DNA of 32,000 nt from Pseudoalteromonas translucida KMM 520 (GTDB taxonomy: Bacteria > Pseudomonadota > Gammaproteobacteria > Enterobacterales > Alteromonadaceae): NCBI RefSeq assembly GCF_001465295.1, contig NZ_CP011034.1:2280001-2312000 (forward strand). The letters run 5' to 3'. Both the position numbers and the translations under genes were made by a program. Numbering within the stretch: the stretch's first letter is position 1; each line of letters starts with the position of its first letter. Below, in pieces: positions 13,394-32,000 of this stretch. The notes beneath the pieces were generated by a model. The model saw nothing but the letters and a program-made list of their open reading frames with translations. It was not told the DNA's origin and did not search any database.

Positions 13394-13498
13394 TGTTGTT
13401 TGAAGTATAAGTTGGCATAAGTACAAACGAGCTTATTGTGCTACAGCTCCGTTAGTGTAGTGTATGTTGGCATAATATTGAAGTAAAAATTGGCATAA
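13394..13498 (+). repeat. CAST left end: terminal TGTTGTTT (13394-13401) plus three direct 18-bp TnsB-type repeats (13403-13420 AAGTATAAGTTGGCATAA, 13458-13475 TAGTGTATGTTGGCATAA, 13481-13498 AAGTAAAAATTGGCATAA)
   Basis: Repeats read directly from the sequence; consensus wAGTrwAwrTTGGCATAA. The layout is a terminal site, a gap, then two adjacent sites. The TGTTG terminus mirrors the Tn6677 left end (TGTTGATG-CAACCATAAAGTGATA...) as I recall it. Confidence 0.6.
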
Positions 13499-13594
13499 TG
13501 TTACCAAATGCTGGTTTTATAAAGCCAACCACATAAAAATACTGTCAAGTTTAGTTGGCTGCTATGTGCCATAAACGGAAGATTATAACCTTAG

Positions 13595-13753
13595 TCACTT
13601 TGCATGATAACGAGTTATTTCATTTTCACATTTTTCCCTTAACTCAGGCGTATCCACATTAGCTACTCTCACACTTATATTCTTACCAAAAATTCGGAGC
13701 ATATCAGAATCAAGGTTGACTCTAAACGCGCCTCCATCGCAAATGCTTACAAT
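13595..13753 (-). pseudogene. Possible thermonuclease (SNase-like) family remnant
   Basis: The minus-strand frame reads ICDGGAFRVNLDSDMLRIFGKNISVRVANVDTPELREKCENEITRYHAK*, resembling the DGDT...RL.GIDAPE..+C..E core of small thermonuclease-family proteins. It has no start codon and is truncated at about 52 codons. Confidence 0.3.
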
Positions 13754-14020
13754 TTAAGTGACGTTCAAAACCCCATAAGTTTTTGCTACCGACAATGGTA
13801 CAAATAGAAGAGTTCAAATGGGTATAGTATATTTCATAATGTAGGCTTGATTAAAAATTATTAATTGGTGAAAATATAGCATTGTACAGAAATAGTTATG
13901 CATGGATCGCTTAAAACTAATTAAACTTGACTGAATACTATTAGTCAATTTAGCTCTCCAATCATTAAGCTTTTCCAAGTCTAAATCAGTCTAACTTTAA
14001 AAATAATTAAGGAAAATTAA

Positions 14021-14734
14021 ATGGCATTAGTTAAATGTAAAGAGTGCGGTGAAGAGGTTAGTAATAAAGCTAAATCTTGCCCCAAGTGCGGTGCAAAAGC
14101 TTCTAAGAAAACATCGTTACTCACATGGCTTGTTCTAATCCTAATAATTCTAGGAGTTTATGTATCAGGTCAATCAACAGATAGGGCAACTAAACCATCT
14201 ACAAAAGTAAGCAGTTCAGATAAAGGTGAGACTATAAAATCCGAAAAAGTACAAAAAGCTGCACCACCAAAGCCAGTTTGGGTTACGTCAGTTTCAAAAG
14301 ATGAGATGACAGGTAAATTCACTGCTTTTGCTCATTCCCCTAGAGCTTATCCCTCGAAAAAAATGGGGTTTCCATACCATGATGTTTATAGTTATATGGG
14401 CGTGGGCTGTAGTGCAGGTAAAGAATGGGTGTATTTAGGCTTTAATGATTCCCCAAATTTATCAAAAGATACTACAAAAAGTGGTTACAACTTAATTAAA
14501 ACACGTATTAAGTGGAACGATAATGTTGAGGACATTTCACTTACCCAAGATTGGGGTGCAAAATTTTTACATTTTAATGATGATTCGATAGTAATTTCAA
14601 AAATAGAAACTTCTAATACAGCGCTTGTTGAACTTCAATGGCATGGTGAGCAAGCGACATATTTCAAATATTCTCTTAGTGGTTCATCAAAAGCGATCTC
14701 TGAAATTAGAGGGAAGTGTTCTAAAAATAAATAA
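14021..14734 (+). CDS. Zinc-ribbon, single-pass membrane protein of unknown function
   Basis: N-terminal CxxC-N10-CxxC (KCKECGEEVSNKAKSCPKCGA), then one TM helix (LLTWLVLILIILGVYV) and a ~170-aa extracytoplasmic domain. An AAGGAAAA RBS precedes the ATG. Confidence 0.6.
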   Translation: MALVKCKECGEEVSNKAKSCPKCGAKASKKTSLLTWLVLILIILGVYVSGQSTDRATKPSTKVSSSDKGETIKSEKVQKAAPPKPVWVTSVSKDEMTGKFTAFAHSPRAYPSKKMGFPYHDVYSYMGVGCSAGKEWVYLGFNDSPNLSKDTTKSGYNLIKTRIKWNDNVEDISLTQDWGAKFLHFNDDSIVISKIETSNTALVELQWHGEQATYFKYSLSGSSKAISEIRGKCSKNK

Positions 14735-14795
14735 GCGCTAAAGATTTTTAACCGTGTGATAAAAGTTATATCACATGAATAAGTCTTAACTTAAT

Positions 14796-14835
14796 CTGTC
14801 AGGTTTGATTTTTAGGTTTTGATCAAATCTGACAG
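14796..14835. terminator. 14-bp stem hairpin (CTGTCAGGTTTGAT ... ATCAAATCTGACAG) between convergent genes
   Basis: Read directly from the sequence, with one G-U pair. No clean U-run follows on either strand, so function as a bidirectional terminator is tentative. A smaller 7-bp hairpin lies at 14755-14775. Confidence 0.4.
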
Positions 14836-14881
14836 CCGCCTATGTACCATCAGCGGACTGTAGTAGCCTTAGTCTCTTGTA

Positions 14882-15091
14882 TTAGTTATTTTCAGGCAGT
14901 TTCTTAATAACTAAAAAGTAATAAACGAGGTATCCTAACCAAGAAATAAAGAATGACATTAAGAACCAAACGACTTTGTTAGTGCCTTCTGCTTTTTTAG
15001 ATACTAAAGCTAGAATCCAAGGCAAAGCCCCCACAAAGAAAACAAATAGCAAAATAAATATTTGCCATAGACTAATTCCACCTAACCCCAT
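14882..15091 (-). CDS. Small two-TM membrane protein (PLDc_N-like?)
   Basis: 69-aa ORF with two hydrophobic helices. GGAG-like sequence lies upstream. The family call is tentative. Confidence 0.45.
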   Translation of the reverse strand: MGLGGISLWQIFILLFVFFVGALPWILALVSKKAEGTNKVVWFLMSFFISWLGYLVYYFLVIKKLPENN

Positions 15092-15172
15092 ATTAACTCC
15101 TTTATAACTTAAAACATCCGTTCTTTACTGCTCACATTGTACCAAAATTAATTATTACTTGCCTTGTATTTT

Positions 15173-15179
15173 CAGTAGC
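15173..15179. repeat. IS21 target-site duplication, left copy (CAGTAGC)
   Basis: An identical 7-mer directly abuts both IS termini. Confidence 0.6.
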
Positions 15180-15242
15180 TATCTAGCGTCAATTAACTTG
15201 GCCGGTTCCGCGTCAATTATCTTGGCCGGTTGATACCGAATT

Positions 15243-15995
15243 TTATTTACTCTTATTGAGCGCTGTTTTGCGCCGGTAACTGTCACCTTCGCAATGAATA
15301 ATCGTGGCATGATGAACCAAACGATCGATCGCCGCGACAGTCATTGTTGAATCTTCAAATAGTTCATCCCATTGCTCAAATGATTTGTTTGATGTGATGA
15401 TCATGCTGTGTCGCTCATAGCGATGGGCTATCAATTCAAACAGCACGCTCGTTTCCTGTTCCGTTTTTCGAACGTAACCAACGTCATCAACGATTAATAA
15501 GCTGTATTTATCGAGCTTTACAAGTTCATCTTGCAAGCGTAAATGTCGCTTTGCTTGCTGGAGTTGTTGAACAATCGTTGACGCGGCAACAAACTTAACT
15601 TTATGGCCCTGCTCGATAAGGCCATAACCGATACTACTGGCGATATGCGTTTTACCAAGACCACTGGCGCCAAATAGCAATATATTGCCACCGTACTTCA
15701 ACCAATCCGGCTGATTTATTAAATCAGCAACAAGGGGCTTACTAACCCCATCAACAAGGGTAAAGTCGAAGCTGCTAAGGTGTTTACCCACTGGCAATTT
15801 TGCATCTTTTAAAAGCCGCTGAAGGCGTTTGTCATCGCGTGTCGCAAGTTCAACATGACACAGCTCAGACAAGTATTGCTGCGGGCTCCATTGTTCTTCT
15901 ATCGCTTTTTTGCCCAGAGTATTCCACTGTTGAAGCATGGTGCTAAGCTTTAATTGTTTCAGCATTAAAGGTAACGAGGCCGTGAAGTTATCCAT
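15243..15995 (-). CDS. istB: IS21 helper ATPase IstB
   Basis: Walker A LLFGASGLGKTH and Walker B LLIVDDVGY. Overlaps the istA stop by 8 nt. Confidence 0.9.
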   Translation of the reverse strand: MDNFTASLPLMLKQLKLSTMLQQWNTLGKKAIEEQWSPQQYLSELCHVELATRDDKRLQRLLKDAKLPVGKHLSSFDFTLVDGVSKPLVADLINQPDWLKYGGNILLFGASGLGKTHIASSIGYGLIEQGHKVKFVAASTIVQQLQQAKRHLRLQDELVKLDKYSLLIVDDVGYVRKTEQETSVLFELIAHRYERHSMIITSNKSFEQWDELFEDSTMTVAAIDRLVHHATIIHCEGDSYRRKTALNKSK

Positions 15996-17481
15996 GTAGG
16001 CCTCCCGGTATCATGCTGCTATAAGCGCTCAAGCTGTGTTGCTTTATTGTCATTGTGGGTCTGTTTGATGCAATCACTAAAAATTGCGCTTCACATTCTC
16101 GGATGGCCGGTAATTGTCGCTGAGTAATTGACGCTGCTACAAATCGCCCTAATTGACGCTCACACCCACTTTGTTTCGCTAAATGGAGCAGTTTTACCAT
16201 GTAATAGCTCGCTTCATCCGCTAAAAGCTGGGCATTAACGTATTCCCAAATAGCTTTGTAATTGTCGTTTGGGAGTAAGTCGTCACGTAGTTGTGAGTAG
16301 CGAAATGCCAATGGTTTTTTAACCAGTGCGTCAATAACATGCAAGTAACTAATATTACGTGCACGGCACCCTTTAGAAGCATAGACACGCGCTAACGTTT
16401 GAACTAAATCGCTGCCATAGCGCAGCTCTAAACGGTTGTCATATAAACGAACAAGTAATCGGCTACCAATAAGGCGTGACGGGACGCTATAGGTAACACG
16501 TTTCAATGAAATAGTACTCGTACGTGACACCGTTAGGTAATGCTCGGTGTAATTGACGCTCATCGCCCGTGGTAAAGCGTGTAATTGTCGCTGCTCTACT
16601 GCGTATTTATCACTTACACGGCGATTACGGCGAGCAACAATGTCGGCAATAAACGATTCATAGACTTCTCTTGTCTGAAAGTCATAACTACCACGGATTT
16701 TTAATGCTTGCTCCAGTTGCGATTTAAGATGCCCATGAGGGCTCTCAATAGCCCCATTTTCATGCGCAATACCGCGGTTATTGCGAGTCGCTTTAAAGCC
16801 ATAATGGATAACTAGCTCATTAAAGCGCTCTGTAAAATCATTATCATTAGTATGATTACGATAGGCGGCACTCAGACTGTCTGTACGCACTTCTTTAGGC
16901 ACACCGCCGGCTGCTTTAAATGCGTTTTGTACGCCATCAGAAAAAGCAGCAAAGCTTTCACCGCCGTAAATTACTTGGGCGTAAGCCTAGCCACTGGCGG
17001 GCATACGATAATGAAACAACATATGCTCAAGGGGTTCACTAGCAATGGTAACGGGTGACTTCACATGTGTGAAATCACATATACCTAATAGGCCATACTC
17101 GTGTGTTTGCAGGAATACGACCTCTTTGCTTGAGCCATACAGTGCCCGCCATTTATGAATTCGACGCTCTAATGTACGCCGTGAGCTCGGGTTAAATTTG
17201 TCGGTGTGAAACTCGCAAAGATGATCAAAAATTCCCACCGGAGTTAACGTTGCATCACCTTGAAGTAGAGGGACAACAATACTGTCCCAGATAGACTCAA
17301 GTGGATCTATACGCGTTCGCCATTGGCGTTTATTAGACAATGGCTGCTCATCCAGTTTATCAATGCGCCTTGCTGAACGTTCAGAAATACCTGCTTTCGC
17401 AGCCGCGATAACTTGGCTATTACGCTTTCTATGTTTCATATAAATAGTGACCTGCTGATCAGTGATTCGTGTTCCCGGCAC
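15988..17481 (-). pseudogene. istA: IS21 transposase IstA interrupted by a single in-frame amber codon
   Basis: Track ORFs 16987..17481 (HTH N-terminus) and 15988..16902 (DDE core) are in the same frame. The stretch between them reads through as ..RMPASG*AYAQVIYGGESFAAFSDGVQNAFKAAGGVPKEVRTD.., with TAG at 16987-16989. Confidence 0.85.
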
Positions 17482-17574
17482 AGTGAACTCCTCCGTTCTG
17501 CTGTACCGAACCTTATCAGATCAACCGGCCAAGATAATTGTCGCTAGACCGGCCACCGTAATTGTCGCTTAATA

Positions 17575-17581
17575 CAGTAGC
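17575..17581. repeat. IS21 target-site duplication, right copy (CAGTAGC)
   Basis: See the left copy. Confidence 0.6.
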
Positions 17582-17978
17582 ACTCTAAACTGTTGTTTGC
17601 CTGCTTAATGCTCCAAGCAAAACTTCGTAAAAGTGCCAAAAACAGTCATTCAGGTATAACTCGTTTCTGCTCCTTTATGAGTTAACGTAAATACTCTAAG
17701 GTCGCCTTTGAGCGAATACCGGTCATTGATATTGGCTAAATATCGTAGTTAATTGATTGGTCAAACTGTTGTTTGCGCACATATTCATGAAAATGAGCGA
17801 CGCGCGCATATTGGTTCATTTAACTTTACTTTAAAGCTTAAGAGACATAGTGATAGTAATATCTTAGGTTATTTGTTAAAACTATATTATATAATGTAGA
17901 AAAATGAATGTTTAGTCGGCAAAAATATGCATATGCGCGATGAGCGCACAATTAAATTATTAGGTAATTAGGGAAAAC

Positions 17979-18962: not shown

Positions 18963-19132
18963 CGCCCGCAACACCAATGTCTGATATTGGCACAAAGCCG
19001 TCCTTTGGCTCTAACTCATCTTTGTCCAAAAATGAGTTTACCCGACCATCTGCTTCTCGCTCTAACTCGAATATCAGCTGGATAGTAGAGGTGCTATTAT
19101 TAAATATAACCTTTTCTGGCTTTGAGGTATCT

Positions 19133-19582
19133 ATGCCTAGCGATATTCAACCTAGTGCTAATAATAAATTTGTAGATATACTTAGCAATGGAAAAGTTAA
19201 TTTAAGCTCAAACCCTTTAGATGAAATTGAATTAATTCAGCGTGGTTTAGATATAAAAAGTGTTGAGAAATTTAGGCTTGAGTTAGATTGGGATATTCAA
19301 TCCTTTGCTAAAGCAATTGGTACAAATACTAGAATTTTCGAACGTCATAAAAAAGAGCATAAACGTTTAAATGCAACTTTGAGCGAAAATACCTTTGAGT
19401 TGGCTCATTTAGCATCAACTTGTATTGATTACTTTGAAAATATTGAACGATGGAATAAATGGCTAAATACATGCTCCTTACAATTTAGCTCTAAAACACC
19501 TTTAACATTTGTAAATACAATTGCGGGTAGAAGGTTAATTAGGAACGTTGTTAATAGCCTTAAACACGGTTATAACGCTTAA
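19133..19582 (+). CDS. Xre-like/DUF2384 (MbcA/ParS-type) antitoxin-like protein
   Basis: I prefer the ATG at 19133 (GAGG 7 nt upstream) over the track start at 18977, which adds low-complexity sequence. The HTH-like middle (DIQSFAKAIGTNTRIFERHKK) and the C-terminus (TPLTFVNTIAGRRLIRNVVNSLKHGY) resemble the DUF2384 toxin-binding domain. Confidence 0.55.
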   Translation: MPSDIQPSANNKFVDILSNGKVNLSSNPLDEIELIQRGLDIKSVEKFRLELDWDIQSFAKAIGTNTRIFERHKKEHKRLNATLSENTFELAHLASTCIDYFENIERWNKWLNTCSLQFSSKTPLTFVNTIAGRRLIRNVVNSLKHGYNA

Positions 19583-19613
19583 AAAGACCCCAGCGTTTGC
19601 TGAGATCTTTTTA

Positions 19614-19762
19614 TTTACCCTCTGCCTTTTCGGCAGTTAAAAGTTACAATTTGTGGTTGTTTACTTCCCGGCCTAACTTCAGCTGCCTACTCGGCAGTTC
19701 ACACTTAGCGGAGTTGACGTCAAAAATTCTAAATATTTCCAGCTGCCTACTCGGCAGTTCAC
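19614..19762 (-). CRISPR. Type I-F CRISPR array with 3 repeats and 2 spacers, transcribed on the minus strand from a ~117-bp AT-rich leader below cas6f
   Basis: Minus-strand sense. R1 19762-19735 is GTGAACTGCCGAGTAGGCAGCTGGAAAT. Spacer 1 19734-19703 (32 nt) is ATTTAGAATTTTTGACGTCAACTCCGCTAAGT. R2 19702-19675 is GTGAACTGCCGAGTAGGCAGCTGAAGTT. Spacer 2 19674-19642 (32-33 nt) is AGGCCGGGAAGTAAACAACCACAAATTGTAACT. R3 19641-19614 is TTTAACTGCCGAAAAGGCAGAGGGTAAA, which is divergent. The repeat closely resembles the Tn6677 repeat GTGAACTGCCGAGTAGGTAGCTGATAAC as I recall it. Confidence 0.9.
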
Positions 19763-19879
19763 TATTAAAAATAGTTTAAATTCCTATAAACACCAAACTG
19801 TTAAACGTATTTAAATTATTTACCCTTATTTTTAATCAATCAGATAACTCATTGAAAATTAATGGGTGTTTTAAAACTA

Positions 19880-20482
19880 TTATAAAAGGGTATTTAAAGA
19901 AGGAACCGTACCTAGAAATATTTGATTTGTAGCAAAGCCATAATTGTTAAACTGATTTTTTATGGATTCAGCATTTTCATTTTTTTGTATATGCAAAACA
20001 TAACTTTGACCATTGCCTTTGCTTGATACGGGTATTGAATGAAAATGGCCTATGTCCTTTGCCTCAAATTTATATTCAGGGTTGTAAACTTCGCCTCTGG
20101 CTTCAGCTCGTTTTTTAGCTCGCTTTAATCGCCTTTGCTTTTCGCCAACAAATGCTTTTGCTACCGATTGGTTGCGAACAAACATGACTTCGCTTTGGTT
20201 TACTGGTACTTCAAGTATTTTTGATAAGCCAAATAACTTGTCATGAGCCATCATCTCAAAATAGCTTTGCTGAGATAGATTGGTTAATTGCTTTTTATTT
20301 GTTGATACAAACGCTAATTCATTACCTATTGTTTGCTCATTCCATTTAGGAAAGCACACACCAATATTACTTATTTCACGTGAGCTCATAAACCCATGCA
20401 AAATACCGATACAACGCCCAGCAAGAAGGCTTACATCACAACTTTGGGGTAAATAAGTAATGGTAAAATAATAGCGCTTCAA
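19880..20482 (-). CDS. cas6f: Cas6f (Csy4) crRNA endoribonuclease, CAST type
   Basis: 200 aa. The N-terminus MKRYYFTITYLPQ...CIGILHGF...NIGVCFPKW parallels the Vibrio Tn6677 Cas6 (MKWYYKTITFLPE...LHGF...NIGVSFPLW). There is a 4-nt ATGA overlap with cas7f, and the gene is followed by the array. Confidence 0.85.
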   Translation of the reverse strand: MKRYYFTITYLPQSCDVSLLAGRCIGILHGFMSSREISNIGVCFPKWNEQTIGNELAFVSTNKKQLTNLSQQSYFEMMAHDKLFGLSKILEVPVNQSEVMFVRNQSVAKAFVGEKQRRLKRAKKRAEARGEVYNPEYKFEAKDIGHFHSIPVSSKGNGQSYVLHIQKNENAESIKNQFNNYGFATNQIFLGTVPSLNTLL

Positions 20483-21507
20483 CCTTTACTCCTTTGAAAC
20501 AAGCCACCTTTGATCAGCACTGCCGCAATAAAGTGAATTGAGTTTGATTGTTCACTTTGCTCTAAACCATGCTTTTCCATGTGTTTAATATGCAAAGCAA
20601 TGCGCGGGAGTAATGAATAAAAGTCTGAATGGCTCTTAGGTGTTCTGTGTGCAACTAATATTTGCTTATCTGCGCCATACTCGTGAGTGCGTAAAGGTTT
20701 GTAACCTTCCTCATACCAATCATCAATAGTTTGGATAGCAGCCCCTACTTTTTGTGAATTCAAACTTGCTGCTTTTTTATCGCCTACTTGAGTATATGCA
20801 AGTTGTTTAGATGACATACCTTGTTCAACATTATCTACAAACTTTTGACTAGGATGAACCTCTTGGCTAAATGCATTTTTAATTTTTGCGGTTATATCTA
20901 AATAACAATAATTTTGAGGATTGCTTAGCCCTTCTTGAATAGATTCTGACAACGTTAATAATGCCGTTTGATTATTTTGCCAGTTGCCTTGCCATTTTAG
21001 TTTTTGTGCACCTTCAACAACAATCGGGGCTGCGTGCTCAGTAAGGATTTCAATATCAACATTTGGTGATTGGCGGTTACGCCAAAGCCAGTTGCCCATC
21101 AGTATATTTTTAGCATAGCGCGTTGCAACTTCATTAAGGCCATTGTGTTTTTTATAGGTTTCGAAAAACCGTTTTAACCAATAAATAACTTTAGGGTCAT
21201 CACATACATGTGGCTCAATACAATTAGCCTCAACCCTGAGTGAAAAACGACAAAATAGCTCATTTACCGTTGGAGGTACATAACACACATCAATTGTTTG
21301 AGGGTTTCCAAACGCGAGATCTTGTGGCGCTAAATTTTTAGCCACATTTTGCTTTTGATACGCATCGCCAAACCCTGACTTCTGCCCAACTAATTTATTT
21401 TGCTCTATTTGTAGCGGTTCAAAGTCAGACTCTGGTGTTTTATAAAAAAACACCGCTTTACTGGGTGAGAGCGAACGCGTGTAACTTAAGTGCCGAGGTA
21501 ATTGCAT
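20479..21507 (-). CDS. cas7f: Cas7f (Csy3) backbone subunit
   Basis: 342 aa. The N-terminus MQLPRHLSYTRSLSPSKAVFF and the C-terminus ..HFIAAVLIKGGLFQRSKG parallel Tn6677 Cas7 (MKLPTNLAYERSIDPSDVCFF ... HFLMANLIKGGMFQHKGD). Confidence 0.85.
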   Translation of the reverse strand: MQLPRHLSYTRSLSPSKAVFFYKTPESDFEPLQIEQNKLVGQKSGFGDAYQKQNVAKNLAPQDLAFGNPQTIDVCYVPPTVNELFCRFSLRVEANCIEPHVCDDPKVIYWLKRFFETYKKHNGLNEVATRYAKNILMGNWLWRNRQSPNVDIEILTEHAAPIVVEGAQKLKWQGNWQNNQTALLTLSESIQEGLSNPQNYCYLDITAKIKNAFSQEVHPSQKFVDNVEQGMSSKQLAYTQVGDKKAASLNSQKVGAAIQTIDDWYEEGYKPLRTHEYGADKQILVAHRTPKSHSDFYSLLPRIALHIKHMEKHGLEQSEQSNSIHFIAAVLIKGGLFQRSKG

Positions 21508-23558: not shown

Positions 23559-23561
23559 AAG

Positions 23562-24743
23562 TTACCACGGCGCTATAAATTGTTTTTTTGTTAGAGGCTT
23601 TTCAGCTGCGAATGCTTGTTGTAGTTCAATCACTTGGCGTAAATAAAATACATGGCTATCAGCTCTGAGCTGTTCGTGCTTTTTTTGTGAATAAGCACAG
23701 TTTAAAAAGGCTTCTTGATGAAGCCTGTAAACTTGCTCTGTAGTAGTGTTTAACAATACTGCGGCATCAAAAGTACAAAGCAGTAAGTCACCAATATTTG
23801 GATGTTTAGCTTTAGGGTTACTATCAACTAATTCGACAAAATAACTAATAATCTCATCAATTACTTTGTTTTTCCGGTTACTTGTTGCAGCTATTTGACC
23901 ATCACGGATTAAATCGCCATAAACAGAGCTGAACTTAGTTTTATTAAAAGGGTTAAGTTGCTTGAGTCGCGCATTATTTGTGAGTAAATCTAATTCAGTG
24001 GTAAGGCTTTCAGGCCAAGTATTAAAGTAATCAACAAAAGCGCAGTTAAAGTCTGCATCACTTACATCAAGTTGCTTAACCTTCGCAAACCACGATATCA
24101 ACCCTACTATTTTTTGGCTGTTACTACTTGCAAGCGCAATTGCAATTTTAAAGTCTGCATCGTTTAACTGTTCACTATTGGTTATTTTACAACCGCAAAC
24201 ACACTCTAAAAACGCCTCAGAGGCTCTGTAATCAATTAAGTCATAGCACTCCTTACAACGTGTAATTAATTGTGACTTATGCTTATGACACGCCTTATAG
24301 GGCTTTAAATGCCAATAAAAGGGAATATGGGAAGATTCAGACAAGCATTTAATGCAAACAGGTATGTTATCAGTACGAAGTAGCTCAAGGGGAATAGCCA
24401 GTTCATTTCGACTTACTGCGGCAAGGTTGCCAAATTTAAAATTACTGCGCCTCCAAGCAAGTGCAAGAATGTCACCAGCGTTTACATCTGCTAATTGAGC
24501 AACCAACTTAAGCGCTCTTATTCTAAAGCTGCTCGCTTGCCTAGCATGATAAACATCAACTTTACTCAGCGCTAACGGCAGCGCACCTTCAAGCTCATTA
24601 TCTTGCTCTGCAAGCCATTGCCACAAAATATCAGCAAGCTCACTATAGCCATTGTATGAGTTATCCCTTGCAAGCCTCAGCAAATAGCTTTCAAGCGCCT
24701 CATCTGGGTAAGATTTTGTTTGAACTAAAAAATGCATCGCCAA
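23562..24743 (-). CDS. tniQ: TniQ (TnsD-family target selector of the CAST)
   Basis: 393 aa. The N-terminus P.EALESYLLRLARDNSY matches the TniQ fold signature (DESLESFFIRVA..NGY). Has a Cys-rich zinc-finger region (CIKCL...CHKH...CKEC) and a C-terminal ..APW. Lies 3 bp upstream of cas8f. The start may be the TTG at 24743 or the ATG at 24737. Confidence 0.85.
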   Translation of the reverse strand: MAMHFLVQTKSYPDEALESYLLRLARDNSYNGYSELADILWQWLAEQDNELEGALPLALSKVDVYHARQASSFRIRALKLVAQLADVNAGDILALAWRRSNFKFGNLAAVSRNELAIPLELLRTDNIPVCIKCLSESSHIPFYWHLKPYKACHKHKSQLITRCKECYDLIDYRASEAFLECVCGCKITNSEQLNDADFKIAIALASSNSQKIVGLISWFAKVKQLDVSDADFNCAFVDYFNTWPESLTTELDLLTNNARLKQLNPFNKTKFSSVYGDLIRDGQIAATSNRKNKVIDEIISYFVELVDSNPKAKHPNIGDLLLCTFDAAVLLNTTTEQVYRLHQEAFLNCAYSQKKHEQLRADSHVFYLRQVIELQQAFAAEKPLTKKQFIAPW

Positions 24744-24770
24744 CCTAAACTAAGAAAATCTTAGTTTAGG
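24744..24770 (-). promoter_or_regulatory. Perfect 11-bp inverted repeat CCTAAACTAAG aaaat CTTAGTTTAGG abutting the tniQ start (candidate Xre operator and/or RBS-occluding hairpin)
   Basis: Read directly from the sequence. The core CTAAG-N5-CTTAG recurs in the xre promoter at 29242-29256. A TTGACC -35-like hexamer lies at 24798-24793. Confidence 0.4.
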
Positions 24771-24811
24771 TTTAGATTAAAAGTAATACTTAGGTCAAGC
24801 TTAAAGAGAAA

Positions 24812-27800
24812 TTAATCTTTTGAAACATCTAAAACAAATATATCAATCAGCCCTACAAGATTTTTAGGTAAGTCATTTTCTAATTTTGCTTTAAGTTCAT
24901 CTGCGCTTTTCAAGCCATGCTGCTTTCTATTCGCTACCTTTTCTTCAGCCCCAAACCAAATAACAAGATAAATACCTTGTCCTTCAGCGTCAGGATGAAT
25001 TGAATATCTTTCAGCCAGTTGGTTTCCTGCTGCTGAAAACAGTTCTGTATGCCACTGCCCTTTAGCTTCAATCACAAGTAATCTTCGAATACCATCCATT
25101 ACTTTGGAGGCAGTAATATCAATTCTATTTTTATCTTTTGTTTGATGCTCTGCATTGATAACTATACTGTCTGCTTCTAAGCGAGGCTTCAAATAGTCTG
25201 CAATAATTTCTACTGAGCTAACTTCGTCAAGTCGAACTCCGCCTTGAGAATAAAAACGATTTCCAGGGTTAAACTCCCCACCTTTAATATCTTTTTGATA
25301 TTTATCTAGCTCATACAAGACTCTATCTCTAAGTCCTTCAACTGTAACAATCTCACAATTATCCAAAAGGTCTATAACCTTTGAAATATTTGGAGGAATA
25401 AAGTTTCTCATAGCTAAAGCACGAATTTGATTTGCTCTCATACTTTTAAGGTTTTGGCACATAACCTGAAAACGAGAGTCCTCAATTAACTGTTCAATAA
25501 TATGAATTGTTCTCTCAGAAGCGTCCAATTCAATTTGCCAAGATATATCAACCAGAAATCGATATGCTCTTTCTCCGTCAGGGCTAGAAGTGCCATATGA
25601 GGAAGGCAAGTTAACTTGTGGCCAATCTTCAATAAAGCGATCTAATAATAGATATATTTTATCACTAGATAAACTTGGAAAAGTATCGCGGCTTCCTGAG
25701 TTTAAACTACTTGATATTCCCTCGAATAAAAATATTGAGCTTTTCTTCTGAGTAAGGAAATTAAAAAGCTTTTGGGAATCGCATAAATTCAAAAAATAAA
25801 AAGCTCTTAAAAACCAAAATTGTATGATTTTCTCTTCAGACTTATCTATATGAGGTGACTCAATTCGACCCAGCCATTCATCGCAACGAATTAAGATCAA
25901 ACCTTTAAGCTGTTCTTTATCACCATAATGAACGGCTAAATCAAATAAAATATCCAACGCATAATAGCTCAGGCCAGAATACTTGTTTAACCACTCTAAG
26001 GGTAAATTGGCTTTAAATTCACTAAATATTTCATCGTCTCTTAGTACTTCTACTTCAGGGTGTTCGCATTTAAACTTGTCTAATTGAGGCTCAACATACT
26101 CTTTTAAGTAATTTTCTTTGGAAGTTACATCAGGAAATAACAAACGATCAATTTCACACTTAAGAAGACCACGTTCATCTTCAGTTACTGCGTCATAATA
26201 AATATTACATCTAGTTTTCACAGCAGTAAGTATTTGCTTACTAATATTGCCTAGATTCCCCTGCATACGTATTGTTTCTATACACAAAGCATACAAAACC
26301 GTTTCAATAAGTAACCACTGCGATAGACTCCTCAACTCAGCAAGTTTCCTTAAATCAGGTACGTCAGGAGCAATCAGGCTAGTGCAGTTTTTTAATGAAG
26401 TTCTCACCAGTTCTTCATCACCAAACTCTTTTTGTATATTTTCAGGTTCAAATAACAAACACTCTGAAAAATTAACTAACCACCCGAAATGCCCTCCAGA
26501 TTCGATTAAAGCGCGGTTTCTCTGAATAAAGCTAATGTTGTCTGCACGATTTTTGCTCTCACATTTTTTGTTCTTTCTATCTAGTCTATTAAACTTCGAA
26601 TTTCGTTTTCGTATCTGTAATCCAATAGAGTAATCTGTATTATTTGCTTTTGCCCACTCTCGCATAAATTCTAGCTTTTGATTAGCATGTTTACGCATGA
26701 TACTGCGTATCTGATTATTCAACTTGAGCTTATTATGCTGAAAGTAATAATGCCTCGTAATAAAAGTCGACCACAGTTCTAAATTGTTTTCTTCAAATGC
26801 TAAATTGATTAGGTATTCAATATCTTCAACGGAAAAACATAATCCAGAATGCGCACCGCAATATGGTTCAAACCTACTTTGTTTCAGATCGTAGATTTTT
26901 TTACGTTCAGTTATACCAGAAAAAGCGGTTTTAAAAAGTCCTTGTCTTAAGTCTTTATTTTCTCTGATTGCTTTTACAGACTTACAGAAATTATCACTTC
27001 CTTCCCTGTGATAATTTAAGTTTTTTAGCCATCCCCATATCTGTTCTGGGTTATATGGGAGGCTAGTAATATCAAAGTAATGATCGAGTAATTTACCTAC
27101 AAGCTTACTTATCCCGTCTCTACAAAAACACTCATAGTACTCTTTGCCACAACTGCAAGTTAACTCATCAGTTAAAAAATTTAATAATCGTTCTGTATTT
27201 TCAGCACTTAAAGTCCATACCAATTTATTGATGAAATATCGATTACCTTGTAACCGTCTATCATCTAGTGAGGTTTTTTCAGTAGGGTAGAGATTTGAAC
27301 ATGCTCGAAAGAAGCGTTTTAGTATGCCTAAATCAATAGAGTTAGCACCTAAGAATTCAATTCCTTTAGCTGCGATGTTTAGAGAGGTATTACTAGACTC
27401 AGATATTAATGTTTCGAGTATTTTAATATCATCAGAATCAATAAGCGAAAACAAACATTCCATAGCAAGCCTTCGAGTATCTAATCTCTCATTAGGTTCA
27501 AATAGTATGTTTATGAGATTGGGGGATAAGTGCTCAATAACCTGAGATTCTTTGATTATAGTTAATACTAAGTCTCGTAAATGCCCATCACTTTTATTTT
27601 CTAAAATTGGCTTAATATCTTCAGCCATATTTTTATCAAAAAAACCAACTGTACTGTATCGCCGCCAAAAATCACCTCTTCTAAAATACGGGTCATTTTT
27701 TTCAATTTGTGTTAACTGTGATAAAAGCAGCCTTTTAGATGAGCGATCAAGTTGTGAGGGGTCTCCATTAGCTAGCACAGCATAAGGATCAAGCTTTATA

Positions 27801-28852
27801 ATTTCATGTTGTAGCGCTAACCCGCCGAGAGTAGCCATCCAACCAAGCATTCCTCTCAATTCATCACGAACAATATTATTTGAAACTATTACTGTTTTAC
27901 AAACTCTTAAAGTTAGTGGATCTTGATTACTCTGTATTCGCTTTACTAAATACTGGGCGGCACAATATTCAGCAATAATTTTGTGAACAGCTCGATGCTG
28001 ATCAACATCATCTGCAAGTTTAAATAAGCGAGAATCTATAATGCTTGATAGATCTAAGCCCTCTCTTATTAGTGCATTAATATTGGGGTATAAGTATTCC
28101 TCTGATAAATCACTAACACTTACTCCTTCAGCACCTGATAAAAGAGTTTTAGAAAATACTTCTGAAGCGAGCTCTATTTTTTTCTTATACGCGAAATCTA
28201 TTCCAGTTCTTCTTTTTGCCGAAGGGTTAAGCTCTTTAGCTAAGTGCTCAACTGCTTTTTCAAAGATGGAGCTTTTACTTTTAAATTTTCGATTACTTTC
28301 AATGTAGGCATCTGCAAACATTTTCAAAAACTGAGGGTTCGGAAGTAAAACATCTAAATTAAAGCGTGAAACTTCTGTATAAAAATTATCAAAATCTTCA
28401 TCAGGCAAGTGGTGATCAAAAATCTTCCTTTGCTCTAATTCATTAAACTCCCTCAGCCTTAAAACCAGAGGAACACATTCTAAATACTCTATAACCGCTT
28501 GTGCTGAGTCACTGCTCCATTCACTTGAGCGACTTGATATTATTAAAGTTTCAGGTTTTGACTCTATGACTTTAGCTAATAATTTGTGTATACCACAGTT
28601 GTCAATCTTGGATAGTTCATCCAAGGCATCTATAACAAGAAAATCCCTAAATAATTTACTAGAATACAAATACTTGCTAGCAGTGACTGGGTTAGTATTA
28701 GCCTTACTTGCTAAGCTTTTAAGAAACTCAGTCTTACCAGCTCCTGGTTCTGCTAAAATAATTACACACTTAGAGACACTCAAGAGTTCATCTTCAGCAT
28801 AAATTTGCTCATCATTTTCAAGAGTACGCTGAAGATAAATATTTGAAGTCAT
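24812..28852 (-). CDS. NACHT-like STAND P-loop NTPase (1346 aa) with a helical/HEAT-like repeat body and a C-terminal PD-(D/E)xK-like nuclease-fold domain
   Basis: Walker A ILAEPGAGKTEFL (aa 31-44), Walker B FLVIDALDEL (aa 71-80), sensor-like LIISSRSS and NPQFLKMF. The middle is long and helical with HEAT-like segments. The last ~130 aa read ..INAEHQTKDKNRIDITASKVMDGIRRLLVIEAKGQWH.., which fits an E...D...ExK pattern. Confidence 0.75.
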   Translation of the reverse strand: MTSNIYLQRTLENDEQIYAEDELLSVSKCVIILAEPGAGKTEFLKSLASKANTNPVTASKYLYSSKLFRDFLVIDALDELSKIDNCGIHKLLAKVIESKPETLIISSRSSEWSSDSAQAVIEYLECVPLVLRLREFNELEQRKIFDHHLPDEDFDNFYTEVSRFNLDVLLPNPQFLKMFADAYIESNRKFKSKSSIFEKAVEHLAKELNPSAKRRTGIDFAYKKKIELASEVFSKTLLSGAEGVSVSDLSEEYLYPNINALIREGLDLSSIIDSRLFKLADDVDQHRAVHKIIAEYCAAQYLVKRIQSNQDPLTLRVCKTVIVSNNIVRDELRGMLGWMATLGGLALQHEIIKLDPYAVLANGDPSQLDRSSKRLLLSQLTQIEKNDPYFRRGDFWRRYSTVGFFDKNMAEDIKPILENKSDGHLRDLVLTIIKESQVIEHLSPNLINILFEPNERLDTRRLAMECLFSLIDSDDIKILETLISESSNTSLNIAAKGIEFLGANSIDLGILKRFFRACSNLYPTEKTSLDDRRLQGNRYFINKLVWTLSAENTERLLNFLTDELTCSCGKEYYECFCRDGISKLVGKLLDHYFDITSLPYNPEQIWGWLKNLNYHREGSDNFCKSVKAIRENKDLRQGLFKTAFSGITERKKIYDLKQSRFEPYCGAHSGLCFSVEDIEYLINLAFEENNLELWSTFITRHYYFQHNKLKLNNQIRSIMRKHANQKLEFMREWAKANNTDYSIGLQIRKRNSKFNRLDRKNKKCESKNRADNISFIQRNRALIESGGHFGWLVNFSECLLFEPENIQKEFGDEELVRTSLKNCTSLIAPDVPDLRKLAELRSLSQWLLIETVLYALCIETIRMQGNLGNISKQILTAVKTRCNIYYDAVTEDERGLLKCEIDRLLFPDVTSKENYLKEYVEPQLDKFKCEHPEVEVLRDDEIFSEFKANLPLEWLNKYSGLSYYALDILFDLAVHYGDKEQLKGLILIRCDEWLGRIESPHIDKSEEKIIQFWFLRAFYFLNLCDSQKLFNFLTQKKSSIFLFEGISSSLNSGSRDTFPSLSSDKIYLLLDRFIEDWPQVNLPSSYGTSSPDGERAYRFLVDISWQIELDASERTIHIIEQLIEDSRFQVMCQNLKSMRANQIRALAMRNFIPPNISKVIDLLDNCEIVTVEGLRDRVLYELDKYQKDIKGGEFNPGNRFYSQGGVRLDEVSSVEIIADYLKPRLEADSIVINAEHQTKDKNRIDITASKVMDGIRRLLVIEAKGQWHTELFSAAGNQLAERYSIHPDAEGQGIYLVIWFGAEEKVANRKQHGLKSADELKAKLENDLPKNLVGLIDIFVLDVSKD

Positions 28853-28904
28853 AGATTCTCTATATATACAAATTAAAGTAAGGTATTTACTCTTTAATTA
28901 AGCC

Positions 28905-29213
28905 TTAAAATATTTTGGAAGCTTTAATACTATCAAGCAGTTTCGCCTTATCATGCTGGTCTGCTTTACCCCATGCGCAAATTAATTCAGCCAAGTCATC
29001 TTCTTCACAATAAAAGTAAGCAACTGGCACATCTAGCTCTTTAGCTATGCGTTTCATGGTTAAAAAATCAGGGGCATGTTTGCCTTTTTCGTATTGGTTC
29101 ATGCGAGCACTAGCCGTGTTTGGCTCCATTCCTAATGCCATACCAAGCTGTTGCTGAGTAAGGCCAGCTGCTTTTCTTGCAGACTTTAGGCGTGAAGGTG
29201 TTGGAGTTTCCAT
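28905..29213 (-). CDS. XRE-family helix-turn-helix transcriptional regulator
   Basis: LKSARKAAGLTQQQLGMALGMEPNTASARMNQYEKGKHAPDFLTMKRIAKELDVPVAYF is a canonical Cro/C1 HTH_3 sequence. AAGG lies 6 nt upstream of the ATG. Confidence 0.85.
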   Translation of the reverse strand: METPTPSRLKSARKAAGLTQQQLGMALGMEPNTASARMNQYEKGKHAPDFLTMKRIAKELDVPVAYFYCEEDDLAELICAWGKADQHDKAKLLDSIKASKIF

Positions 29214-29241
29214 GTGAACCTTAGCTATAAAACATATCTTG

Positions 29242-29290
29242 CTAAGATTCTCTTAGTATCCAACCCATAAGTGTACTAAGGATATTTTAG
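29242..29290 (-). promoter_or_regulatory. Candidate Xre operators in the xre promoter: CTAAG attct CTTAG (29242-29256) and CTAAG gatat TTTAG (29276-29290)
   Basis: Read directly from the sequence. The half-sites and N5 spacing match the palindrome at the tniQ start. Confidence 0.35.
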
Positions 29291-29302
29291 TTTTTAGAAA
29301 AG

Positions 29303-30079
29303 TTAAAGATAATCTTTTTTCAGGCCGGCCAATCGAATTTTACTAGTTGTAAATTGTTTTGTAACTGAGTCAATATATTGATAAAGGCTGAGCTCAATTT
29401 CATCAAAGCTCGTTCGGTGTCTGTGCTCAATTGTTATACCAAATTCTTTCAAAACTTCTATTAGCTTTGTTTGATGGTTTGTATATTTATATCTTAAGTT
29501 AGTATCTTTAGCATCATTGTATCTTTGGTTTGAGTCCTCAATTACAGCTATTACGTCATTTAATTTTCGATCGTACAGTCTAAAAAAGTTAAATTTACCA
29601 CTTCTAGAGTCTGGGAACACTAAAGCATAATATGTATACAAATCAATACGTTCTGGACTTAACAAGTGGTCCCGTTCAATTTGAGCTGAACAGAATTCTG
29701 CAAAGTTACTTAAGTTGTTGTTATGGTTTGACATTATGCTATTTTCTAATGATAAAGCATACGTTTTCCACCCAATATACACACCCAATCCAGCTAGTAT
29801 AGTTCCAAATATAACAGTCAATTCTTTACTGAAAGATAGGGAATAGATGAACCGTTCATTAACAATTTTTAAACAAGAATTGGTTAAACATAATCCCCAA
29901 GTTAAGTTCTCATCATTGATAAATTCAATTGCAACGCCTATAACTAGCAACAACTGTAGGGAAATATAAAGTAAAAAAAGGAATACAAACCAGCTTTTAG
30001 TTCTAACGCTTAAAAGGTAATTCACCGAAATATGTTTTTTCAAATTGATAAATATGCTCTTAAATTTATCCAATGTCAT
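29303..30079 (-). CDS. Two-TM membrane protein, putative effector partner of the RT
   Basis: TM helices WFVFLFLLYISLQLLLVIGVAIEFI and LTVIFGTILAGLGVYIGW, followed by a ~150-aa soluble tail. I prefer the ATG at 30079 (AAGGA 9 nt upstream), which overlaps the RT stop by 14 nt. The track start at 30118 is a GTG with no SD. Confidence 0.6.
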   Translation of the reverse strand: MTLDKFKSIFINLKKHISVNYLLSVRTKSWFVFLFLLYISLQLLLVIGVAIEFINDENLTWGLCLTNSCLKIVNERFIYSLSFSKELTVIFGTILAGLGVYIGWKTYALSLENSIMSNHNNNLSNFAEFCSAQIERDHLLSPERIDLYTYYALVFPDSRSGKFNFFRLYDRKLNDVIAVIEDSNQRYNDAKDTNLRYKYTNHQTKLIEVLKEFGITIEHRHRTSFDEIELSLYQYIDSVTKQFTTSKIRLAGLKKDYL

Positions 30080-31250
30080 ATTTTCGATCCTTTGGCTCAA
30101 TTTCTTTAAGTCGCTCACTTATTTCGGTGTATTTATCTTTATATAATCTTTTTATAATTCCATTCATATAAACAACTAGGTTAAATCTTTTTTTGTACCA
30201 GTATTTCTCCCTATAACTATCAGGGTAGGTTTCGAGCTTTTTAATTATAAAAAAACAATGTTTTATATCAACTGCCGATGGCAATGGCTGAATATCACTT
30301 AAAGCGTTTTTAAAGTAGCCGTGTTTTGGATGCTTGACCCTTGCTAGCTTGTGAATGCGACCTAAACATCTATCAAAAGATCTGCGATAACTTCTGCTTT
30401 TCCTAAAGTTATTTTCTTGAGCTTTCTTTGTTAATGCATGTACTTCTGCTCTGATTTTTGCAATCTCTTTAGCAGGTAAACGTGGCTGGTCAAACTCAAC
30501 TCTAAGCCCGTGTACCATCAAGGGCTTTATCGAGCTATAAGACACCTCTTCTTTTTGCTCATTTATTGGCAAATCTTTTTGCAGAAGCATGTCTTCAATT
30601 AATTTTTTTGCAGTGTTGAAATTAAAATTAGAAGCTGTACTAGAAACGGAGATATCATCAATGAACCTAGTATAAGTAAGTCCCTTACGTTCTAATCGTT
30701 TAACCAGTAAGTGTTCTAAGTCAAAAAATATTAAGTTAGCTACATAGCTTGAGGTCAATGCGCCTTGAACCAATGTATTTTCAAAGCAACAAACATCACA
30801 TATGAAATCGGCTACTTCATTTGAAAGATCTAAAGTATTAACCAAAATATCTTTTATATGCTCTTTATGAATATTATCGAAGAAATCTGATATATCCATT
30901 TTTAAAAGGCTTTTTGCTCCACAATGCTTTTCAGCACATTTGATGTGGTCTCTGCTATCCTCAATTCCATTAATTAACTTTGGTATAGAACCGTATACAA
31001 ACTCAGGCCAAATTATTTTAGGCTTGAAAAAGCGGTTATTGATTCTTCTCTGAAATTTTCTGGTCAATTTATTAGGACATAAAACTCTTCTCTTAGAACC
31101 ATCACTTTTATATGCAGATTTAACAGGTTCACGATATCTAGAAGAGCTATTTGAGGATATAAAAGCTTCATAATCATCTTCTAAATCTAGAAAAGATATA
31201 AAGTTTTCAAGCTTTTTAATTGGGTCGCCTCGGTAATACTTAATTTCCAT
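30066..31250 (-). CDS. Reverse transcriptase, retron-type or defence-associated
   Basis: RT motifs 1-7 are present: RRVLCPNKLTRKFQRRI, LLKMDISDFFDNI (motif A), LVQGALTSSYVANL (motif B, QGxxTSP-like), YTRFIDDISVS (motif C, xxDD), INEQKEEV, and MVHGLRV (compare retron VTG). There is no endonuclease or maturase domain. Confidence 0.85.
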   Translation of the reverse strand: MEIKYYRGDPIKKLENFISFLDLEDDYEAFISSNSSSRYREPVKSAYKSDGSKRRVLCPNKLTRKFQRRINNRFFKPKIIWPEFVYGSIPKLINGIEDSRDHIKCAEKHCGAKSLLKMDISDFFDNIHKEHIKDILVNTLDLSNEVADFICDVCCFENTLVQGALTSSYVANLIFFDLEHLLVKRLERKGLTYTRFIDDISVSSTASNFNFNTAKKLIEDMLLQKDLPINEQKEEVSYSSIKPLMVHGLRVEFDQPRLPAKEIAKIRAEVHALTKKAQENNFRKSRSYRRSFDRCLGRIHKLARVKHPKHGYFKNALSDIQPLPSAVDIKHCFFIIKKLETYPDSYREKYWYKKRFNLVVYMNGIIKRLYKDKYTEISERLKEIEPKDRKYDIG

Positions 31251-31264
31251 ATAATACCATTTTG

Positions 31265-31481
31265 GTTGGATGCCGTACCAAGCATGCGCTTTTATACCGT
31301 TTCTCTAGGCTAAAGGTTAACCATCACATTCTTTAAGTCAAATCTCAGCAACCACTGGTTAAACTTCGGTACGGCTGATCCATAGCTTGCTATTGCCTCC
31401 GCCAGCCGGAGGCGTGGTGGGGCCCTGAGCGTAGATGACATAGTCACCGTTATGTATGTAGCATACATAACACAGCTGAGA
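31265..31481 (-). ncRNA. Structured non-coding leader upstream of the RT, candidate msr-msd-type ncRNA
   Basis: About 350 bp between tnsC and the RT has no ORF in the track. Local hairpins lie at 31449-31471 (10-bp perfect stem), 31434-31448 and 31395-31413 (7-bp GC stem). Long-range pairings are 31364-31375 with 31272-31282 (GCCGUACCgAAG/CUUGGUACGGC), 31475-31481 with 31343-31349, and 31356-31362 with 31317-31323. Boundaries are not determined. Confidence 0.45.
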
Positions 31482-31572
31482 ATTTTTAATAACCTTAAAT
31501 GCAGTGAATAAGTGAATCACTTACGCAGATTACAATCTAATTGATAATCGACCATAATTCAACAAATTAAGA

Positions 31573-31592
31573 CAGCTTATTTATCTAAGCTG
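31573..31592 (-). terminator. Hairpin CAGCTTA gataaa TAAGCTG followed by T-rich sequence, downstream of tnsC
   Basis: 7-bp stem read on the minus strand. Followed by tcttaatttgtt. Confidence 0.45.
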
Positions 31593-31603
31593 AATAAGTA
31601 AGG

Positions 31604-32000
31604 TTATTTCCTTAACAACTGACTAATCGGCATCCGGTCAGTAAACTTGGTCGCTATAAACGGGTCTTCATCTTGAGAGCTTTCAGGCTTATAAAGTGAA
31701 TAGCGCTCGACTTCGCTTGCTGTTATTTCTGCTACAGGCAAGGTAAATAAATTAGGAACATCCGGAAAGAGTACCTCAAATGCTTTAACTAAATGCTTGG
31801 TTGTGAGAGTTTTCGCGTTGTCCATTAATGCATAAAGTACGGCATCATCTAAAAAGTATTTTAATGTTCTAAAGCAACCTTTTGATAATGAGAACAAAGT
31901 AAACACTGTTGCTTGCTCACTTAAGTTTGGCTTTTCGGCAAATGGCATACGGTTGGCTAGACCAATTATTAGTTGTACAAAATGCTTTGGGTTTTCTGAC
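31604..32000 (-). CDS. tnsC: TnsC (TniB-like AAA+ regulator of Tn7-like transposition), C-terminal part. The 5' end is outside the window.
   Basis: The frame stays open from 31604 to the window edge (..SENPKHFVQLIIGLANRMPFAEKPNLSEQ...). The C-terminal sequence is TniB/TnsC-like (..SKGCFRTLKYFLDDAVLYALMDNAKTLTTKHL..). Its position and orientation match tnsC upstream of tniQ-cas in I-F3 CASTs. Confidence 0.7.
   Translation of the reverse strand, partial: SENPKHFVQLIIGLANRMPFAEKPNLSEQATVFTLFSLSKGCFRTLKYFLDDAVLYALMDNAKTLTTKHLVKAFEVLFPDVPNLFTLPVAEITASEVERYSLYKPESSQDEDPFIATKFTDRMPISQLLRK

Follow-up and report, generated by a model that had tools for sequence, protein, structure and literature searches.

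Known CRISPR-associated transposons (CASTs) of type I-F3 include Tn6677 (VchCAST) from Vibrio cholerae, which is the archetype of the I-F3a branch, Tn6900 (AsaCAST) from Aeromonas salmonicida S44, which serves as the I-F3b reference, and Tn7016 (PseCAST) from Pseudoalteromonas, which also belongs to I-F3b. I-F3a elements have a guaC attachment site, a 68-aa Xre protein of the C.AhdI type and, ahead of the att-targeting spacer, an Xre site (Petassi 2020). In I-F3b the attachment site is ffs or rsmJ, and the att spacer occupies the last position of a single array, with an atypical repeat on either side of it. The tnsABC and tniQ-cas operons of this branch enclose the gene of a C.Csp231I-like Xre with a length of about 100 aa; two motifs precede xre and one precedes tniQ, and Xre represses tniQ-cas (Petassi 2020). 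An xre gene between these operons is the norm for I-F3 elements, and the guide of Tn6900 is functional despite 10 mismatches (Petassi 2020). C.Csp231I itself is the controller of a restriction-modification (R-M) system, which recognizes CTAAG-N5-CTTAG at two operators 18 bp apart and has an extra C-terminal helix 7 implicated in dimer-dimer contacts; in the controller-restriction (C-R) operon its gene is co-transcribed with that of the toxic endonuclease (PMC4321490). Here we analysed a stretch of 32,000 nt from Pseudoalteromonas translucida KMM 520 (the window). Its positions 13394-32000 very probably comprise about 85% of a type I-F3b Tn7-like CAST, which is inserted downstream of ffs, the gene of the signal recognition particle (SRP) RNA. 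The core genes of this element lie on the minus strand, and judged from the geometry of the related contig L001 its whole length would be about 21.8 kb.

The gene content of the window is that of a CAST (Table 1). An original prediction for this DNA had named a tightly coupled tniQ-cas8f/5f-cas7f-cas6f operon with a short I-F array, no adaptation or Cas3 genes, the 3' end of tnsC in the same orientation and a Tn7-type left end, and all of these features were recovered. The four tniQ-cas genes are joined by junctions of -4 to +3 nt, and their products are full length and 86-96% identical to proteins of equal lengths from the relatives. Among the open reading frames (ORFs) of the window with 80 aa or more, neither cas1 nor cas2-3 was found. 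The tnsC fragment is 96-97% identical to the full-length TnsC of the relatives. The left end carries three TnsB-site-like 19-mers (13401-13419, 13456-13474 and 13479-13497), which are the only three in the 32 kb compared with 0.03 expected, and inverted copies of its terminal 26-mer are found at the right ends of four related loci (L001, L003, L005 and L010). A second transposon end or a tRNA gene was not found in the window. The proposed identity, an RNA-guided Tn7-like I-F3 transposon, is thus supported by the gene content and likewise by the continuation in L001 and by matches in the structure database.

The assignment to a branch had to be corrected. The original prediction called the element Tn6677-like, and it does share with Tn6677 the tniQ-cas8/5-cas7-cas6 genes with a short array, the Tn7-like ends, the lack of cas1 and cas2-3, most probably the tnsABC genes and, by analogy, the RNA-guided insertion mechanism. 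The protein matches to Tn6677 are much weaker than those to the I-F3b systems (TniQ 2e-34, Cas8 7e-48, TnsC 5e-27), and the ffs site, the C.Csp231I-type Xre and the atypical terminal repeats place the element in the I-F3b branch of Tn6900 and Tn7016. The statement that tnsC abuts tniQ in Tn6677 is also not strictly right, since an xre between the operons is normal in I-F3. The best solved-structure matches of TniQ, Cas8/5, Cas7 and TnsC are the transposon QCascade/TnsC complexes of PseCAST (PDB 30GA; TniQ 2e-69, Cas8 1e-146, Cas7 3e-95, TnsC 6e-71) and AsaCAST (PDB 7U5D). With Tn6900 the element has in common the ffs site, a homing spacer at the last position of a short array, between atypical repeats and with many mismatches (10 in Tn6900 and eight in KMM 520), an Xre of about 100 aa encoded between the modules with two operators before xre and one before tniQ, and whole-length matches for Cas8/5, TniQ and Cas7. 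With Tn7016 (PDB 30GA/30GB/30GT) it shares the host genus, the module set and the best structure matches. However, Cas7 is only about 45% identical to the Cas7 proteins of both systems, which indicates a distinct lineage within the known branch; this lineage is found in Pseudoalteromonas, is separate from Tn6900 and is not the same transposon family as Tn7016 at the nucleotide level. Defence cassettes on both sides of xre, as described below, are not discussed for Tn6900 or other elements in the accessible I-F3b texts.

The missing end of the element was searched for in other sequences, a check which the original prediction had asked for. An exact-protein look-up with the retron reverse transcriptase (RT) encoded between tnsC and xre returned as its sole result L001, a public contig from another sample, which is 98.4% identical to window positions 29597-31999 over 2403 bp. 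L001 continues past the window edge with intact tnsC, tnsB and tnsA and an inverted copy of the terminal sequence, which is the right end; directly outside of it follow TTGGG and then the 3' part of ffs. As TTGGG is the reverse complement of the CCCAA at the left end in the window, both together represent a 5-bp duplication. A genome scan with TniQ yielded ten loci, all from Pseudoalteromonas (TniQ 82-92% identical), and a metagenome scan with Xre 80 further loci; loci with an Xre at least 79% identical are referred to as the close family. Intact tnsA, tnsB and tnsC are also encoded by L003, L005 and L010, in which the SRP RNA gene (Rfam RF00169, 73.5 bits) is located just upstream of tnsA. 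L005 is a single contig with both ends, next to each of which TTTGG is found, and its element has a size of 18.2 kb. From these loci the presence of tnsA, tnsB and the right end in the KMM 520 genome is strongly implied. The insertion points 3' of ffs vary by 1-2 bp across the relatives (TTGGG versus TTTGG; 50, 51 or 52 bp from the protospacer), which indicates independent, recent insertion events in the lineage, and all of them fall within the ffs terminator hairpin ACCCAAA...TTTGGGT (window 13389-13393 compared with the right junctions of L005 and L010).

Some relatives deviate at their ends. L008 (1-3037), L035 (164-3625) and L036 (219-3680) encode TnsC, TniQ and Cas proteins 85-96% identical to those of the window lineage; their TnsA is only 46-66% and their TnsB 57% identical, which shows that the tnsAB module, presumably including the ends, was swapped between CAST lineages upstream of tnsC. 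In L009 a second Tn7-like right end (TGTCGTTTGAAGTATAAGATGACAT, 19476-19532) starts 5 bp past the CAST left end, so that two elements lie in tandem at ffs.

The second and last spacer of the array is the homing guide. Of its 32 positions 24 match ffs, and the calculated chance of a match at least as good at a given position is about 4e-9. The mismatches are at positions 6, 12, 13, 15, 18, 24, 25 and 30; five of these eight (6, 12, 18, 24 and 30) are the every-sixth positions which are flipped out by Cascade. A homing spacer in last position with the same atypical repeats is kept in L004, L005, L008, L009 and L010. In six single contigs (L005, L010, L013, L018, L027 and L037) the spacer differs from the resident ffs at 7-8 positions and the position of the protospacer-adjacent motif (PAM) reads TC; in these as well as in L001 the distance from the end of the protospacer to the transposon end is 50-52 bp including the duplication.

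With the individual steps taken from characterised members of the family, insertion could be envisaged as follows. Cas6 would cut the array transcript, and the resulting CRISPR RNAs (crRNAs) would be loaded by Cas8/5, Cas7 and Cas6 together with a TniQ dimer. The terminal crRNA, with its altered 5' handle and its atypical 3' repeat, would pair with ffs despite the eight mismatches, five of which would remain unpaired in any case. TnsC would form the bridge to TnsA/TnsB, which would insert the element right end first, downstream of the target at a distance of about 47 bp plus the 5-bp duplication. The typical spacer, which is proximal to the leader, would guide hops to a mobile element. By analogy with these systems the element of KMM 520 is presumably active in transposition.

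Several observations weigh against a complete and functional I-F3b CAST. The genes tnsA and tnsB, the right end and ffs lie beyond position 32000 and are deduced from a different sample (L001) and from relatives. The PAM position of the homing guide reads TC and not the canonical CC, and for spacer 1 no target was found in the PLSDB plasmids or the INPHARED phages (blastn, E up to 1). The distance of Cas7 from both characterised I-F3b systems belongs here as well. The Xre of the window is without the last six residues of the allele found in L004 and L009, which is due to a change from TCT TTA to TTT TAA (28905-28925). Finally, a sigma-70 promoter scan of positions 19500-32000 gave fewer promoter-like sites than shuffled sequences, and predicted terminators equalled those in shuffles; the scan is uninformative, also with respect to co-transcription, and the regulation described below is therefore deduced from motifs alone. 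With IMG/VR, searched by a pattern in which every sixth base was left free, spacer 1 again gave no target, and within the window it matches only itself.

Some of these points would also suit an immobilised and decaying CAST, which serves the host solely as a defence island and has lost its transposition functions. In favour of such a decay, tnsA and tnsB are not seen in the window, Xre has lost six residues by a premature stop, the cargo contains an IS21 copy whose istA has an in-frame stop, and a neighbouring MFS transporter gene is broken into three ORFs, a sign of either some pseudogenisation or sequence errors in the KMM 520 genome. Yet none of TniQ, Cas8/5, Cas7 and Cas6 is truncated and their identity to the proteins of the relatives is 86-96%, the left end, the three TnsB sites in it and the duplication have been preserved, the homing spacer and the atypical repeats are conserved, the nearly identical L001 has intact tnsABC, and the shifts of 1-2 bp between insertion points speak for recent events in the lineage. 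We therefore consider decay improbable. The element is apparently an intact I-F3b CAST, that is a member of an already described subtype and not a new system.

The xre gene, which is kept in every relative, encodes a regulator whose residues 8-92 align with C.Csp231I (PDB 3LFP, 5e-26; PADLOC Control_protein 6.5e-31). The C.Csp231I recognition sequence CTAAG-N5-CTTAG recurs in the window, where the two predicted operators upstream of xre are 19 bp apart, compared with 18 bp in the Csp231I operon. The motif is present only at the three predicted places and at one further site with one mismatch (6 strand-matches compared with 0.76 expected), and all three predicted operators lie within blocks which are conserved across every relative. 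Xre would thus be expected to regulate both xre and tniQ-cas: binding at the two upstream operators would cause autoregulation, binding at the operator in the tniQ leader repression. Such an arrangement may produce a burst of targeting-complex expression when the element enters a naive cell.

The original prediction noticed about 6.8 kb of defence-type genes between tnsC and tniQ. Size and content were right, as 6.86 kb with a retron RT, a two-transmembrane (2TM) effector, xre and the gene EruA separate the tnsC stop from the tniQ start; a single block they are not, since two slots flank the conserved xre. Blastn comparison with the relatives reveals three anchors: tnsC up to its stop codon (window 31608 onward), a segment beginning at 28966 or 28980 and ending at 29296, which consists of 83 bp of operator/promoter region and xre codons 1 to about 72-79, and the region from the array through tniQ including 38 bp of its leader (19580-24781). 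The sequence between the anchors is variable and forms slot 1 (29297-31607) and slot 2 (24782 to about 28965). The window itself is a mosaic of these parts. In the part that runs from tnsC through the retron and into xre (28975-31999) its identity to L010 is 98%, and in the part from xre through EruA to the array (19680-29310) its identity to L004 and L009 is 94.5%; the crossover lies within the conserved 5' part of xre. In all of the about 30 close-family loci of the Pseudoalteromonas type with the relevant genes both slots are filled, and in 22 loci 15 different contents of slot 1 and 11 of slot 2 are joined in 20 combinations. Conserved anchors, variable slots and the mosaic are best explained by a repeated exchange of cassettes through homologous recombination between related CASTs, neither by a single insertion nor by an insertion sequence (IS). 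In such swaps between relatives, tnsC, the 5' half of xre and the leader of tniQ would serve as anchors.

That the gap between tnsC and tniQ arose in this element alone, by the recent insertion of a single defence island, was the implied reading of the original prediction. It could draw on compact relatives: in the distant I-F3b locus L052 tnsC is followed by 113 bp, xre, 576 bp and tniQ, and in the distant L039-L041 xre is 75 bp away from tniQ. Nevertheless, xre with its operators, which occupies the middle of the gap, belongs to the core and is conserved in all relatives, the two sides vary independently and have in the window different closest relatives, and empty slots do not occur in the close-family loci. 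For this lineage a single insertion was hence rejected as very unlikely. The IS21 copy was also considered as the cause of the split between tnsC and tniQ and was rejected, because it is located in the distal cargo with a 7-bp duplication of its own. A canonical type I-F1 immune locus which merely lies near a transposon remnant would account for the Csy2, Csy3 and Csy4 family matches and for the I-F-type repeat with its CTGCC/GGCAG stem, and can practically be dismissed, since cas1 and cas2-3 are missing in the window, Cas8 forms a fusion with Cas5, the operon begins with tniQ, the last of only two spacers is aimed at a host gene via an atypical repeat, and the comparison with known I-F3 CASTs, which the original prediction had suggested, gave far better E values for CAST complexes (1e-95 to 1e-147) than for I-F1 Csy proteins (1e-29).

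Slot 1 of the window contains the gene order of a type IV (Ec48-type) retron, a clade IV RT followed by the 2TM effector (NCBIfam NF038235, 251 bits compared with a cut-off of 65). The msr-msd RNA of this retron may be encoded in an interval of 145 nt with a fold z-score of -2.3, of which three copies show no sequence variation; a search of this candidate in Rfam gave nothing at the gathering threshold and noise alone at E up to 10. Slot 2 contains EruA, which is annotated as a NACHT anti-phage gene (NCBIfam NF058535, 1240 bits compared with a cut-off of 1000, residues 12-1344; Pfam nSTAND3/NACHT). A primary paper on an anti-phage gene of this name was not found in the literature search, nor one on CRISPR or transposons of Pseudoalteromonas sp. 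P1-25. In L009 (5898-9929) EruA is broken up, with ORFs of 810 and 531 aa.

The relatives carry in these slots Gabija (three subtypes), SIR2-HerA, PDC-M62, Pycsar, Lamassu, PDC-S20, PDC-S73 and a possible dGTPase, and two slot-2 cassettes contain a type II methyltransferase. For five slot-2 cassettes no Pfam, NCBIfam or PADLOC match was obtained (Table 1); due to their position directly 3' of xre they are candidates for new anti-phage genes. Two unannotated slot-1 genes, L002 4920-6509 (529 aa, weak DUF7828 match) and L003 5278-6369 (363 aa), recur at the xre-proximal end of differing slot-1 contents, always divergent from xre, and have homologues in L008, L009, L013, L015, L018, L034 and L055. 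They may form a sub-module of their own. A description of internal slots around xre was not found in the CAST literature, of which our coverage is incomplete.

Slot 2 follows a rule of orientation which slot 1 does not have. Among the 11 distinct slot-2 cassettes ten begin on the same strand as xre, for which the binomial probability with p = 0.5 is 0.006 (10 or more of 11); six of the ten begin 0-14 nt after the xre stop and EruA 36-52 nt after it, and no rule relative to xre is seen for the slot-1 genes. Judged from gene order and strand, xre and slot 2 have the geometry of the C-R operon, and EruA may be co-transcribed with xre. As in the Csp231I operon (C gene, then co-transcribed R gene), a potentially toxic defence gene lies directly 3' of the controller on the same strand, and the two methyltransferase cassettes of the relatives still recall an R-M system; in contrast, the downstream gene in KMM 520 is EruA and not a restriction endonuclease, and a third predicted operator is located at tniQ-cas. 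It is a tentative idea, and rather doubtful at present, that the slot directly 3' of xre serves as a docking site which puts potentially toxic defence effectors under a controller logic of the R-M type. The cassette would take the place of the R gene, would be co-transcribed with xre and would be switched on late in a naive cell. Xre residues 1-72 are nearly invariant, and the 25-35 C-terminal residues differ and co-vary with the slot-2 cassette with a single exception (L032). These cassette-specific tails, from residue 73 to the end and thus in the region of helix 7, might tune the switch. The co-variation can be accounted for just as well by simple linkage around a recombination breakpoint.

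Table 1. Features of the CAST in the KMM 520 window and unmatched slot-2 cassettes of related loci. Coordinates refer to the window unless a locus is named.
Feature	Position	Strand	Remarks
Target-site duplication copy, 5 bp	13389..13393	.	CCCAA (TTGGG on element strand); abuts left end
Tn7-type left end	13394..13498	+	terminal TGTTGTTTGAAG, then three TnsB-binding-site-like repeats
Cargo ORF, 237 aa	14021..14734	+	N-terminal zinc ribbon, Pfam Zn_Ribbon_1 1e-5
IS21-family insertion sequence, 2394 bp	15181..17574	-	multi-repeat terminal inverted repeats
istB	15243-15995	-	in IS21 copy
istA	15988-16902 and 16987-17481	-	in IS21 copy; split by one in-frame stop
Cargo ORF, 327 aa	17979..18962	+	no family match
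Cargo ORF, 201 aa	18977..19582	+	Xre/MbcA/ParS-type antitoxin C-terminal domain, Pfam PF09722 3e-6
CRISPR array	19614..19762	-	3 repeats, 2 spacers; downstream of cas6
Repeat R3, strongly atypical	19641-19614	-	TTTAACTGCCGAAAAGGCAGAGGGTAAA; CTGCC/GGCAG stem kept
ffs homing spacer (attachment-site)	19674-19643	-	AGGCCGGGAAGTAAACAACCACAAATTGTAAC
Repeat R2	19702-19675	-	altered 5' handle CTGAAGTT in place of CTGGAAAT
Spacer 1, leader-proximal	19734-19703	-	typical spacer
Repeat R1	19762-19735	-	GTGAACTGCCGAGTAGGCAGCTGGAAAT; typical of I-F3
cas6 (Csy4)	19880..20482	-	Csy4 match 1e-23 to 1e-29
cas7 (Csy3)	20479..21507	-	Csy3 match 3e-67
cas8/cas5 fusion	21507..23558	-	683 aa; Csy2 domain only at residues 422-600
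tniQ	23562..24743	-	Pfam TniQ 1e-13; probable ATG start at 24737
Predicted Xre operator (perfect)	24750..24764	.	CTAAG-ATTTT-CTTAG; tniQ leader, in block of about 38 bp conserved in all relatives
EruA (slot 2)	24812..28852	-	NACHT anti-phage gene, 1346 aa; starts 52 nt downstream of xre, same strand
xre	28905..29213	-	rtbC-type regulator, C.Csp231I-class controller protein; 102 aa, helix-turn-helix
Predicted Xre operators, 19 bp apart	29242..29290	.	two sites upstream of xre
Proximal predicted Xre operator	29242-29256	.	CTAAG-AGAAT-CTTAG; upstream of xre
Distal predicted Xre operator	29276-29290	.	CTAAA-ATATC-CTTAG; upstream of xre
Retron 2TM effector (slot 1)	29303..30118	-	type IV (Ec48-type); PADLOC 2TM_IV 3e-52
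Retron RT (slot 1)	30066..31250	-	type IV; PADLOC RT_IV 2e-137; Pfam RVT_1
Candidate retron non-coding RNA (msr-msd), 145 nt	31340..31484	-	bracketed by 10-nt inverted repeats AATTCTCAGC and GCTGAGATTT (a1/a2)
tnsC, 3' end	31604..32000	-	131 codons and stop; cut by window edge
Unmatched slot-2 cassette, 527 aa	L005 8366-9949		
Unmatched slot-2 cassette, 521 aa	L034 5437-7002		
Unmatched slot-2 cassette, 390 aa	L011 8770-9942		
Unmatched slot-2 cassette, 866 aa	L029 2580-5180		
Unmatched slot-2 cassette, 460+114+284 aa	L019 7439-10005		

Between the array and the left end the original prediction had placed about 6 kb of IS-invaded cargo, and this part indeed measures 6.2 kb and contains an IS21-family element. 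The IS21 copy is flanked by a 7-bp duplication, CAGTAGC, at 15174-15180 and 17575-17581. The in-frame stop of istA (16903-16986) is at the position of a conserved tryptophan, so that the transposase is not intact and the copy is probably inactive. No PADLOC or NCBIfam match was obtained for the ORF encoding the zinc ribbon protein. The 201-aa ORF gave a match to NCBIfam NF049845 (79.6 bits), which is under the cut-off of 90. This antitoxin-like gene begins 15 nt after the 327-aa ORF, and the pair is convergent with the CRISPR array, which an antitoxin-like gene also adjoins in L004 and L010. The RES toxin which usually comes after such an antitoxin was not found following it.

Outside of the element the chromosomal MFS sugar-transporter gene at 6369-7788 is present in three ORFs (190, 94 and 211 aa), which is due either to a pseudogene or to sequence errors. 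Further to the left (2380-5984) a 720-aa FAN1-HTH/VRR-NUC/RNase T exonuclease fusion and a DUF2971 gene with a low GC content (32.5%) are encoded. This region may be another island and is apparently unrelated to the CAST.

PseCAST is the leading CAST for human-cell editing. The element of KMM 520 is a well-delimited, apparently intact addition to the I-F3b branch, and with a Cas7 about 45% identical to those of the two characterised I-F3b systems it could be a useful orthologue to test. If the slot 3' of xre is indeed a docking site, the five unmatched slot-2 cassettes would be new anti-phage genes. The core finding will be expected by specialists, and the understanding of what a CAST is does not change; the exchange of defence genes in two slots around a controller is a useful, incremental addition, which may carry more weight than the element itself. 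According to a 2024 review it is still unexplained how closely related Tn7-like elements come to differ in cargo. The anti-phage systems shuffled in the two slots are a concrete example of how related Tn7-like elements gain very different cargo.

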